From the NCBI GenBank assembly GCA_031268315.1, contig JAIRXK010000021.1, positions 8,859 to 72,858 on the forward strand: a stretch of DNA of 64,000 nucleotides, in the 5' to 3' direction. A program made the translations under genes and the position numbers. The notes under the pieces were generated by a model that saw nothing but the letters and a program-made list of their open reading frames with translations, was not told the origin of the DNA and made no database searches. Below, piece by piece: positions 21,359 to 23,536 of the stretch. This stretch comes from Puniceicoccales bacterium (GTDB lineage: Bacteria; Verrucomicrobiota; Verrucomicrobiia; Opitutales; JAIRLM01). Numbering within the stretch: position 1 is the stretch's first letter; each line of letters starts with the position of its first letter.

Positions 21359-23536
21359 TTAGTCTGCGGCATTGCTTGGGCGATTTTTGTACTTCTTCAG
21401 GGCGAAGCTGGCAATTTCGATGATAATCGAGGCAACAGCCACAGCGGTGAAGATTATCGTTAGAGGGCCTATGGCAAGCATATTTAGTGCAAAAGTAATT
21501 ACAATTCCAATAATTGCGACGCTGCCCACCGTGGCAATAATTATCCTAAATAGCACACTGCAAAAGAGGGATTTTTCCTCCGACTCTGTAACTTTTTCTT
21601 GCGCATTTGCCCATTGCGGCAAATTGACGAATGATTTACTGTTGCTATTTTCCGGTTGTTTTATTTGCAGTAAATCAGTGGATAATTTTTCGATTTCATT
21701 TTCTTGTTTATCTTGCATATAATTATCAACTTGTGATGAATCATTAACTGAACTTAAATCGACGGATGATTTTTCTTTATTATTTTCCGATTGACTTGTT
21801 TGCGTTAAATCATCGGATAATTTTTCGGTTTCATTTTCTTGTTTATTTTGCATATAATTATCAACTTGCGATGAGTCATTAACTGAACTTAAATCGACGA
21901 ATGATTTACTGTTGCTATTTTCCGGTTGTTTTATTTGCAGTAAATCAGTGGATAATTCTTTGGTTTCATTTTCTAATTGCGATTGATTACCTTGCAATGA
22001 AACATTAACTAAACTTAAATCGACGGATGATTCTTTTTTATTATTTTCCGATTGGCTTGCTTTCGATGAATTGGCGCGTAATGCACTGGTGACATCTTTC
22101 GATTGCGTTGGATTATCTATTTCGGATGACTCTCCCAGTAAAATACTCCTATATTCCTTCAATGATTCATTATTTATAATGCTTTCTTTATTTCGAAATT
22201 CTTCTAAAATTTCAACTGCCTTCTTTCGAGTATCTTCATTACCACTGGAGCATAGCGCCCTTATCACTTTCACCGCAATATTTGGTTTTAATCTTAAAGC
22301 ATATCCAAGAATGTTAATATCCTCTAACAGCATTATAATTGCAGCGATATTATCATCATTATCTATTTCATTTAACGCCATTTCCGGATCACTTATTTTA
22401 TGATTACCTGAAAAAATATTATCGATTTTTTTTAAATGTTCCTGATTCCCATTTTTGCCACTGATACAAAGTGCCGTTAGAGCTTTTCCTGCGGATTTTG
22501 GATTTTTATTGAAAATATCCTGTATTTTTTTTGGATTTACTTCCATTATAATTGCTGCGATAATATCATTGTCGTCAAGTGCGCACAAAACATTCCCAGC
22601 TCCTGAGGGCTGCATTGCTTCTAGAACATCAATGACTTTTTTCCCTTGCTTACTTTTTTCATTTTGACTATCGTTTACTCCTTCTTGCGCGCTATCTTTA
22701 TTTTGATCGCCGTGCGCATACATCTTTGCTAGAATCCTCCCTGCACCTACAGCATCTTTATCTAAAATATTTGCTAGCTTGTAAAGGAAATTATCATCAA
22801 TCTCCATGATAGTCGCTATGGCGGAATTCTCATCCATTTTTTCAAGGGCTTCCATGGCACAACCACAGGATATTCCTAATAGAATATTGACGGCTTGTTC
22901 ATTTTTGCGATTCGCTACAAGCTCATTCATGATTTTCACTGCAATGTCAACATTTTTATTCATAATTCTTCTCATAGTATGGGAATCAATTTGATCGGTA
23001 ATTGCTATGAAGTCTTTTTCATTTTTTACTGTGATTAGGGCCGCTGCAGCTTCTCCTGAATCATACCCAGCAACCTCTTCCAAAATTCTAACAGCTTTTT
23101 TGATTTGCTGGTCCCTTTCCTCTTGATTGCCATAGGAACACAGCGCCTTTAGAACTCTTTCAGCAGTCTCGGCATGTCCCCTAAAAATATTTGCCACACT
23201 TCCATCATCCATTTCCATCACAATTCCAGCTAGATCCTCATCGGAATCGATCATCCCAATGGCCATGCTCTGAATGCTCGGACGGTACTCCATCAGGATG
23301 GATACCGCATTTTTAAAAATTTTTCCCCCATTGGTATCCGCAATCAATGCGGCGCTAATGGAACCCTTTAGGCGTCTTGCCGCTCCCTCTTCTTGGGGTG
23401 ATGCGTGATTTCTAGGCGATGTTCGGACTGCGTCCATGAGCTTAGGCGGAGTCTGTTCCAGTGGTTTGCTAGTTGGATCAACAACATTGACAACGTCTAA
23501 ATATTGAGTCGATCTCCCTTGGTTTACGACCTGCAT
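21359..23536 (-). CDS. tail-anchored helical-repeat protein (MgtE-N/FliG-like repeats, acidic 45-aa tandem repeats, C-terminal bilobed hydrophobic domain)
   Basis: Repeats such as VIDVLEAMQPSGAGNVLCALDDNDIIAAIIMEVNPKKIQDIFNKNPKSAGKALTALC. C-terminus LFRIIIATVGSVAIIGIVITFALNMLAIGPLTIIFTAVAVASIIIEIASFAL. I chose the ATG at 23536 (MQVVNQ) because the promoter box lies between it and the first ATG in the ORF track (23557). Confidence 0.8.
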   Translation of the reverse strand: MQVVNQGRSTQYLDVVNVVDPTSKPLEQTPPKLMDAVRTSPRNHASPQEEGAARRLKGSISAALIADTNGGKIFKNAVSILMEYRPSIQSMAIGMIDSDEDLAGIVMEMDDGSVANIFRGHAETAERVLKALCSYGNQEERDQQIKKAVRILEEVAGYDSGEAAAALITVKNEKDFIAITDQIDSHTMRRIMNKNVDIAVKIMNELVANRKNEQAVNILLGISCGCAMEALEKMDENSAIATIMEIDDNFLYKLANILDKDAVGAGRILAKMYAHGDQNKDSAQEGVNDSQNEKSKQGKKVIDVLEAMQPSGAGNVLCALDDNDIIAAIIMEVNPKKIQDIFNKNPKSAGKALTALCISGKNGNQEHLKKIDNIFSGNHKISDPEMALNEIDNDDNIAAIIMLLEDINILGYALRLKPNIAVKVIRALCSSGNEDTRKKAVEILEEFRNKESIINNESLKEYRSILLGESSEIDNPTQSKDVTSALRANSSKASQSENNKKESSVDLSLVNVSLQGNQSQLENETKELSTDLLQIKQPENSNSKSFVDLSSVNDSSQVDNYMQNKQENETEKLSDDLTQTSQSENNKEKSSVDLSSVNDSSQVDNYMQDKQENEIEKLSTDLLQIKQPENSNSKSFVNLPQWANAQEKVTESEEKSLFCSVLFRIIIATVGSVAIIGIVITFALNMLAIGPLTIIFTAVAVASIIIEIASFALKKYKNRPSNAAD
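21626..22070 (-). repeat. about 3.5 tandem 135-bp (45-aa) coding repeats, alternating A/B subtypes
   Basis: Units start at 21626, 21761, 21896 and 22022 (plus-strand gacgaatgat / gacggatgat). Long identical stretches occur, for example ctgttgctattttccggttgttttatttgcagtaaatcagtggataatt, which appears twice. Confidence 0.85.

Follow-up and report, generated by a model that had tools for sequence, protein, structure and literature searches.

What is the function of a long orphan protein in which helical repeats, recalling those of a magnesium channel and of the flagellar rotor, are joined to an acidic tether and a membrane hairpin? The question is raised by a gene on the minus strand of a 64-kb stretch of DNA (the window, by which we mean the whole stretch that was analysed) on a 111-kb contig of a metagenome-assembled genome (MAG) deposited at NCBI as 'Puniceicoccales bacterium', with locus tags LBI69_. 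Its open reading frame (ORF), 21359..23557 on the minus strand, is a complete coding sequence of 732 residues from the first ATG, and the NCBI record of the protein is MDR1437920.1 / LBI69_02560. We find that this target protein consists of a disordered N-terminus, five helical repeats, an acidic linker and a C-terminal two-helix hairpin, that it belongs to an orphan family of variable repeat number seen only in this MAG and on one small metagenome contig, and that the resemblance of its repeats to MgtE_N and to the ARM-like helical repeats of FliG is supported at the level of fold and family by profile matches of its relatives and by a structural model. Our tentative reading, which we put just short of an even chance, is that it may serve as a membrane-tethered protein-interaction scaffold, with its solenoid facing the host cytosol or nucleoplasm at a host-symbiont interface. 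The gene is laid out as follows.

23327..23557, minus: N-terminal region, residues 1-77, predicted disordered (pLDDT 29-47)
23285..23326, minus: N-terminal capping helix GKIFKNAVSILMEY, residues 78-91, corresponding to the final helix of a unit
23063..23284, minus: repeat 1, residues 92-165, five helices (alignment, hidden Markov model (HMM), structural model)
22871..23062, minus: repeat 2, residues 166-229, the unit that diverges most (alignment, HMM, model)
22613..22870, minus: repeat 3, residues 230-315 (alignment, HMM, model)
22394..22612, minus: repeat 4, residues 316-388 (alignment, HMM)
22187..22393, minus: repeat 5, residues 389-457 (alignment, HMM)
21569..22186, minus: acidic linker, residues 458-663 (net charge -18, pI 4.4; much Ser, Glu, Asn and Gln), of low model confidence
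21646..22058, minus: 45-residue tandem repeat within the linker (TRF: 135-bp period, 3.1 copies, 80% matches)
21398..21568, minus: bilobed hydrophobic domain, residues 664-720 (57 residues; hydropathy, AlphaFold helices)
21359..21397, minus: basic tail KKYKNRPSNAAD, residues 721-732, net +3 by charge count, and the stop codon

Are the repeats real? The first-pass annotation of this DNA had described units of a common pattern over residues ~70-470, and the pattern holds. Indeed, when the five proposed units were aligned locally and compared with 300 shuffles, z-scores of 18.3 (R1/R5), 13.3 (R1/R4), 7.6 (R1/R3), 6.7 (R4/R5), 5.0 (R2/R4) and 4.8 (R3/R4) were obtained; the pairs R2/R3, R2/R5 and R3/R5, taken alone, showed no significance in this 300-shuffle test. 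An HMM built from the five units re-finds every one of them, with independent E-values of 1e-26 to 1e-32. The consensus, ..AA.AL...D...I.AI.ME......A.IL..N...A.K.L.ALC..G......KKAV.ILE.M, is essentially the one proposed earlier, and the three peptides quoted as examples lie at residues 129-161, 308-349 and 426-454. The five units, of 64-86 residues each (~70) and with five helices per unit, are homologous to one another. Their net charge is -14, and repeat 3 carries a polar insertion of ~20 residues (284-301) which is of low confidence in the model.

The remainder of the protein was also largely as first described. The acidic 45-residue tandem repeats are there, in a region with a net charge of -13 over 141 residues (18% Ser, 13% Asn, 11% Gln). 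In two of the copies (residues 551-556 and 641-646) the opening motif is SKSFV(D/N)L, where the others have SSVDL; the former, an aromatic-x-x-aliphatic motif in an acidic, Ser-rich setting, recalls short linear interaction motifs. Kyte-Doolittle 19-residue means of 1.7-2.6 over residues 662-721 bear out the C-terminal double hydrophobic segment, as do two AlphaFold helices, at 659-693 and 699-722, with a turn (..NMLAIGP..) between them. The target has no hydrophobic segment besides 662-721, and a hydropathy scan of residues 1-77 revealed neither a signal peptide nor a hydrophobic segment. The description of the protein as tail-anchored stands in so far as the membrane anchor is C-terminal, but the anchor is a two-helix hairpin and not a single tail helix. 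Under the positive-inside rule, the basic tail would place both ends of the hairpin in the cytoplasm.

The start of the protein may lie further downstream than the first ATG. Met4 at 23548 gives 729 residues (the NCBI call) and Met8 at 23536 gives 725 residues (the JGI call, P0001), the latter position being the end coordinate of the earlier annotation. The best promoter-like sequence of the region is close by:

23544..23571, minus: sigma-70-like site TTGACA-16-TATGGT, 10/12 matches (consensus match only)

This site sits within the longest ORF and, if used, would have its predicted transcription start at about Met8. The mRNA would then have little or no leader, which favours the JGI start with 725 residues.

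Do the repeats belong with MgtE_N and FliG, as their spacing of leucines and acidic residues had suggested? The N domain of MgtE, the ARM-like motifs of FliG and the heads of FlgY, FlbB and MotE have in common a right-handed, non-canonical ARM-like superhelix, which is PF03448 (MgtE_N) in Pfam, and such modules act as interaction modules forming rings or stacks (PMC13023049). Tested directly, the target is not a member of the PF03448 profile family: in Pfam at E<=10, the only matches were sub-threshold ones to Arm_3 (14.8 bits, cutoff 28.8) and HEAT_2 (14.5 bits, cutoff 27.7), both at residues 418-460, and to acylphosphatase, and an NCBIfam scan of the target gave nothing relevant. Three relatives, however, do exceed the PF03448 gathering score of 25.9 bits, namely the paralogue P0002 (27.5 bits), the product of 43360-45114 in the window (28.2 bits) and the second gene of the metagenome contig L003 (31.4 bits), and in all three MgtE_N is the top and only significant Pfam match. 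The paralogue P0004 stays below the gathering score, at 16.8 bits, and none of FliG_N, FliG_M and FliG_C has a Pfam match in the target or its paralogues. Since the target has no PF03448 match of its own, its place in the group comes through transitive homology, by phmmer and by the repeat HMM, which links it to the family relatives at E=1e-33 to 1e-81. The Pfam comparison proposed in the first-pass annotation thus failed for the target and succeeded for three of its relatives.

A full-length, single-sequence AlphaFold model was all-helical and poor overall (pLDDT 53.6), reaching pLDDT 70-84 in repeats 1, 2 and 4; with Foldseek it retrieved generic solenoids (designed helical repeats, importin-alpha, beta-catenin, HEAT proteins) at TM 0.1-0.3 and a root-mean-square deviation (rmsd) of 12-27 Å. 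As a multi-repeat MAFFT alignment (A4) was too ragged for structure prediction, residues 92-232 were modelled on a cleaner alignment (A5) of 15 rows, in which pairs of family repeats are in phase. This two-repeat model is confident (pLDDT 91.4, pTM 0.83) and has ten helices, five per unit. Its sole tight superposition is on 2oux_A, the soluble part of the magnesium transporter MgtE (prob 0.98, TMq 0.56, rmsd 2.9 Å over 107 columns; Foldseek E-value 1.0), the remaining listed matches having an rmsd of 7.7-20 Å, mostly 8-15 Å. Because only the N domain of 2oux_A is all-helical, the match is presumably to the MgtE N domain. Nothing in the PDB matched the two-repeat model at E<=1e-3. Of the solenoid expected by the first-pass annotation, two repeats are modelled with confidence and the full length is not. 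Its comparison with MgtE_N and FliG finds some support in the three relatives and, more tentatively, in the superposition on 2OUX, but none in Pfam for the target itself; profile similarity and a solenoid-type model, whose absence would have counted against the comparison, were both found, in indirect and marginal form.

How far does this family extend? When 1.84 billion representative proteins were searched exhaustively with phmmer, four proteins were returned in all: the target, P0002 (E=5e-9), P0003 and P0004 (40846-43278 of the window). A word-indexed search of 5.8 billion proteins with the full protein gave the self match only, and with a 20-repeat profile nothing. GTDB genomes and JGI metagenomes searched with the family alignment, with P0002 and with MutS returned nothing, and no family member was present in three related Puniceicoccales contigs around MutS. 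P0002 is LBI69_05075, in the same MAG on a different contig, and is therefore a paralogue and not an orthologue; JGI names a 471-residue version of it 'flagellar motility protein MotE'. The repeat profile made from the target's five units finds 40846-43278 at E=1e-20, and at 1e-81 after one iteration. Further members of the family lie in the window itself:

39987..40874, minus: paralogue fragment, 295 residues, three repeat units and a C-terminal transmembrane (TM) helix (repeat HMM, hydropathy)
40846..43278, minus: paralogue P0004, 810 residues, ~12 repeat units (phmmer, repeat HMM)
43360..45114, minus: paralogue, 584 residues, no membrane anchor, MgtE_N at 28.2 bits (Pfam, repeat HMM)
45118..46458, minus: divergent paralogue, 446 residues, no anchor (repeat HMM, E=1.8e-10)
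46467..46970, minus: possible remote member, 167 residues, weak (repeat HMM, E=2e-4, within the window only)

The first two of these overlap by 29 nt, and the repeat motif runs on across the frames, ending in LKMDNDSVVSKIV in one and going on with YNYLKVEKIFNILNSNAKVAAKIM in the other. To judge from this continuity, they are probably a single gene for ~1100 residues, with ~14 repeats and a TM helix at the C-terminus. The one-base frameshift that would interrupt it could be a pseudogene lesion, an assembly error or a programmed event.

The sole occurrence outside the MAG is L003, a 2.9-kb JGI contig (1-2867) from sample 3300042636. Its first family gene resembles P0002 and contains a frameshift, so that the repeats (481-1041) and the hairpin ORF (984-1226) are in different frames; its second, of at least 511 residues, has six repeat units and runs off the contig end. 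Upstream of both, an ORF of 110 residues (8-340), with no Pfam match, is possibly a mobile-element remnant. Homologues thus came to light in the window, in the MAG and on L003, but nowhere else in these searches. P0002 and L003, at ~30% identity, keep the domain order and the hairpin sequence (EKS.F.SV..R.I.ATVG..A..GIV...AL...ASFALEK), the first hairpin helix is also kept in 39987-40874, and the end of the N-terminal region (..RRLKGSISAALIADTNGG..) aligns with a conserved pre-repeat segment of P0002, P0003 and L003. The 45-residue tandem repeat is not present in P0002. Repeat number goes from 2-3 (P0003, P0002) through 5 in the target and at least 6 in L003 to ~14 in the putative fused gene.

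With which known systems can this architecture be compared? The MgtE N domain (PF03448, 2OUX), like the target family, is an all-helical superhelical repeat of short helices, and the motif type L..M....AA..L..(D/E)D..I..I is common to both. In MgtE, however, the N domain is single and precedes CBS domains and a 5-TM channel, whereas the target has at least five consecutive units, neither CBS domains nor a channel, a tether of acidic tandem repeats and, at the C-terminus, a hairpin of two helices. FliG has, like MgtE_N, a non-canonical ARM-like helical packing that stacks between subunits (PMC13023049); it is soluble and binds FliF, whereas the target is predicted to be membrane-anchored and is devoid of a flagellar context. 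FlgY, FlbB and MotE are, like the target, membrane-associated carriers of MgtE_N-type helical modules, but these begin with an anchor or signal, continue in a long helix and end in one periplasmic head, and their dimers form rings (PMC13023049). The target would have the opposite topology, in which an N-terminal array of repeats, predicted to be cytosolic, precedes the C-terminal hairpin. Canonical ARM and HEAT proteins (importin-alpha, beta-catenin, designed repeats) have a similar elongated helical-repeat solenoid overall, with ARM units of ~42 residues and three helices and HEAT units of two helices against ~70 residues and five helices in the target, whose ARM and HEAT Pfam matches are far below cutoff.

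The last comparison is with the chlamydial inclusion membrane (Inc) proteins, which are characterised by type III secretion and by insertion into the membrane of a host-derived vacuole. Like the target, these have a lone bilobed domain with two TM helices within 40-70 residues, no signal peptide and a remainder predicted to face one compartment, and their genes are clustered, lineage-specific and fast-evolving. The target does have, at residues 662-721, a bilobed domain of the Inc type (~40-70 residues) as its only membrane segment. However, Incs are proteins of Chlamydiota and the target's organism belongs to Verrucomicrobiota. Moreover, there is no sequence similarity to Inc families in NCBIfam, where the sole match, of P0002 to NF047333 (E=0.52), is hydrophobic noise.

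In what kind of organism does the family occur? The MutS encoded in the window is at most 61% identical to other proteins, the nearest being from other Puniceicoccales MAGs, then from Opitutus and Opitutaceae. One of these MutS relatives is on JAIRWT010000008, inside the accession range JAIRJQ-JAITXW of termite-gut MAGs (PMC11257099), and the protein accessions of the target's MAG lie between those of two such MutS-relative MAGs. By this accession proximity the MAG is probably of termite-gut origin; in the accessible part of the supplementary tables of the termite MAG paper, neither Puniceicoccales nor LBI69 is mentioned (PMC11257099). Opitutales families have been described as established or putative protist endosymbionts (PMC11257099), and the lineage is probably a gut-protist-associated verrucomicrobium with a reduced genome.

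The composition of the window is sharply split. The GC content at third codon positions (GC3) is 56-67% in housekeeping genes (ABC transporter, MutS, MnmE, M29 peptidase, pseudouridine synthase), intermediate in DprA (47%) and 31-46% in the orphan genes, including the target (33%), and the housekeeping and low-GC3 orphan genes are interleaved on one contig. The other features that concern us here are the following.

1602-13520, plus: five tandem paralogues of 816, 500, 591, 903 and 814 residues with a common N-terminal region of ~200-300 residues
16823-17362 and 18361-19767, plus: orphan pair, 49% identical over ~180 residues in a paralogue comparison, no Pfam matches
19828-19902, minus: tRNA-Lys, at a border between GC3 classes
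23961-39665, plus: giant orphan protein of 5234 residues with a C-terminal bilobed hydrophobic segment
49689-49773, minus: tRNA-Leu, at a border between GC3 classes
55735-63972, minus: giant orphan protein of at least 2745 residues, reaching near the window end, with a C-terminal bilobed hydrophobic segment

The position of the tRNA genes suggests either an island-like acquisition of the orphan genes or a very different selective regime. The five tandem paralogues have a GC3 of 38-42%, and the first only carries DSP/PTP-phosphatase-like Pfam matches, at residues 507-639. The two giant proteins, which gave no Pfam domain where tested, are 49% identical over ~2400 residues, and their terminal bilobed segments of 65-70 residues are homologous. 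In all, at least eight window proteins have a lone bilobed hydrophobic domain of 40-70 residues; two related loci, used as rough controls, had 0 and 2 such ORFs. The domain is C-terminal in the target and in both giant proteins, and N-proximal, with 55-70 residues, in 17945-18409 (plus), 47632-48342 (minus), 48665-49507 (minus) and 49790-51943 (plus). These four proteins have polar, partly coiled-coil-looking tails, as in the classic layout of Inc-like proteins; three of the four genes lie side by side. The first-pass annotation had taken in neither the paralogue cluster nor the organism nor these surrounding hairpin-bearing orphans.

How might such a protein work? We propose that the repeats would stack into one continuous superhelix which binds partner proteins or self-associates, by analogy with MgtE_N-type modules, which act in this way in MgtE, FliG and FlgY/FlbB/MotE. 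As a signal peptide is lacking and the hairpin falls within the last 70 residues, insertion into the membrane would be post-translational, and solenoid and C-tail would both stay on the cytosolic face. The acidic linker, whose length varies within the family through the 45-residue tandem repeats, would be a flexible spacer that lets the solenoid reach off the membrane and that lengthens or shortens as repeats are gained or lost. We place this scaffold tentatively at a host-symbiont interface because hairpin-only orphans are concentrated in the window, their composition looks foreign, a neighbouring family includes a eukaryote-like phosphatase-like member, the target's family evolves fast and the probable lifestyle of the organism fits.

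Several results weigh against a host-facing scaffold built of MgtE_N/FliG-type repeats. As regards the repeats, the target matches neither MgtE_N nor a FliG family in Pfam, even at E<=10, and domain, one-repeat and two-repeat profiles run against PDB sequences found no significant MgtE or FliG chain, the best FliG chain being 3usw_A (H. pylori FliG) at an insignificant E=0.33. Foldseek gives the superposition on 2oux an E-value of 1.0, and its top 50 matches include no FliG chain. Moreover, helical-repeat matches of 24-31 bits are not very specific, as artificial consensus repeats match many Pfam families equally weakly. Indeed, a triple consensus drew dozens of spurious Pfam matches at 20-33 bits, and a two-repeat consensus scored 24.0 bits with MgtE_N, level with HTH_Crp_2 and PPR, and was rejected as evidence. 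Since consensus repeats match unrelated families at like strength, the MgtE_N scores of the relatives are suggestive and not decisive. As regards the host, there is no evidence of secretion of the target, and the 64-kb window contains no secretion-system genes. Most chlamydial Incs have their bilobed domain near the N-terminus, whereas the hairpin of the target is C-terminal; the hairpin is also very hydrophobic and would suit the bacterium's own inner membrane. Finally, some paralogues (43360-45114, 45118-46458) lack any anchor, and the only pointer to a termite-gut or endosymbiont origin of the MAG is the proximity of accessions.

The explanation that best withstands these facts, after the one that we favour, is a protein of the bacterium's own membrane, whose solenoid would face the bacterial cytoplasm and organise or sequester bacterial proteins at the inner membrane, and which would not be an effector. 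We regard it as a possible, if rather doubtful, explanation. The lack of a signal peptide, the strongly hydrophobic hairpin (Kyte-Doolittle 2.0-2.6) and the basic tail fit positive-inside insertion, every known MgtE_N-type module acts in the bacterial envelope or cytoplasm (PMC13023049), and secretion machinery is not visible in the window. Reduced-genome gut Opitutales (UBA9783), which have many hypothetical membrane proteins, have moreover been argued to be possibly free-living (PMC12306168). However, an inner-membrane role leaves unexplained why a single-hairpin design is common to many unrelated orphans, including those of 5234 and 2745 residues, and why the orphans have a distinct, low GC3. 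It also does not account for the rapid change of repeat number, the tandem repeats of recent origin and the near-absence outside the lineage, which are more typical of host-interaction genes.

Could the gene have no function at all? That it is decaying, or a chance ORF in low-complexity repetitive DNA, seems improbable to us. It is true that frameshifts occur in family members, both in the window (39987/40846) and in L003, and that selection is not measurable with only one sequence of the exact target gene. But the frame is open over 2.2 kb in DNA of 38% GC, the helical repeats are predicted to be ordered at pLDDT 91, and P0002 and L003, at ~30% identity, have kept the domain order and the hairpin sequence.

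That the protein is an accessory of the flagellum or motor, of the MotE/FlgY/FlbB (E-ring) or FliG kind, is more improbable still. MgtE_N is the Pfam domain that defines the FlgY/FlbB/MotE head (PMC13023049), the paralogue P0006 bears the JGI annotation 'flagellar motility protein MotE', and the sub-threshold match to 3usw_A points the same way. Against this, the architecture is reversed and multiplied, with at least five units and then a C-terminal hairpin, and the family occurs in at least five copies of variable repeat number. Neither FliG_N, FliG_M nor FliG_C was matched, the window contains no flagellar genes, and flagella are lacking in UBA9783, the only related family of gut Opitutales that was examined (PMC12306168). 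A Mg2+-sensing or transport-regulating relative of MgtE, to which the superposition on the MgtE cytosolic domain and the acidic repeats (net -14) might have pointed, is hardly credible, as Pfam finds neither the CBS pair nor the MgtE membrane domain, two hairpin helices cannot make the 5-TM MgtE pore, and a repeat array with tandem paralogy is not transporter-like. We therefore rejected an MgtE transporter (no CBS domains or channel), a FliG/MotE protein (no FliG match, no flagellar genes) and a spurious ORF (a conserved long frame).

In conclusion, the type of fold is known, and a membrane-tethered solenoid is, as an idea, ordinary. What we did not find described in the libraries and literature searched is the combination of multiplied MgtE_N-type units with a tether of acidic tandem repeats and a bilobed hairpin at the C-terminus, in an orphan family that is expanding in a verrucomicrobial MAG, in agreement with the statement of the first-pass annotation that no function had been described for such an architecture. 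To our knowledge, MgtE_N/FliG-type modules have so far been met as single domains, in a Mg2+ channel, in the flagellar rotor and in the E-ring; if our fold assignment is true, the module has here been multiplied into a solenoid of 5 to at least 14 units and fixed to the membrane by a hairpin.

Should the protein act in the bacterium's own membrane only, it would be a lineage-specific scaffold of modest general interest. The low-GC orphan families with a lone bilobed domain nevertheless suggest a host-interaction repertoire that uses an Inc-like principle of membrane insertion. A more far-reaching version, which we think unlikely as a whole, is that a verrucomicrobium associated with termite-gut protists possesses an Inc-like arsenal outside Chlamydiae, independently evolved or inherited, whose bilobed-hairpin effectors sit in the host membrane; the present family would then expose to the host an MgtE_N/FliG-type superhelix co-opted from a motor or transporter module, with its reach tuned by the 45-residue repeats. 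If they face the host, these proteins would be candidates for the contact between symbiont and host in termite-gut protists, and would bear on the evolution of intracellular life in the Planctomycetes-Verrucomicrobia-Chlamydiae (PVC) group, in which Verrucomicrobiota are sister to Chlamydiae.

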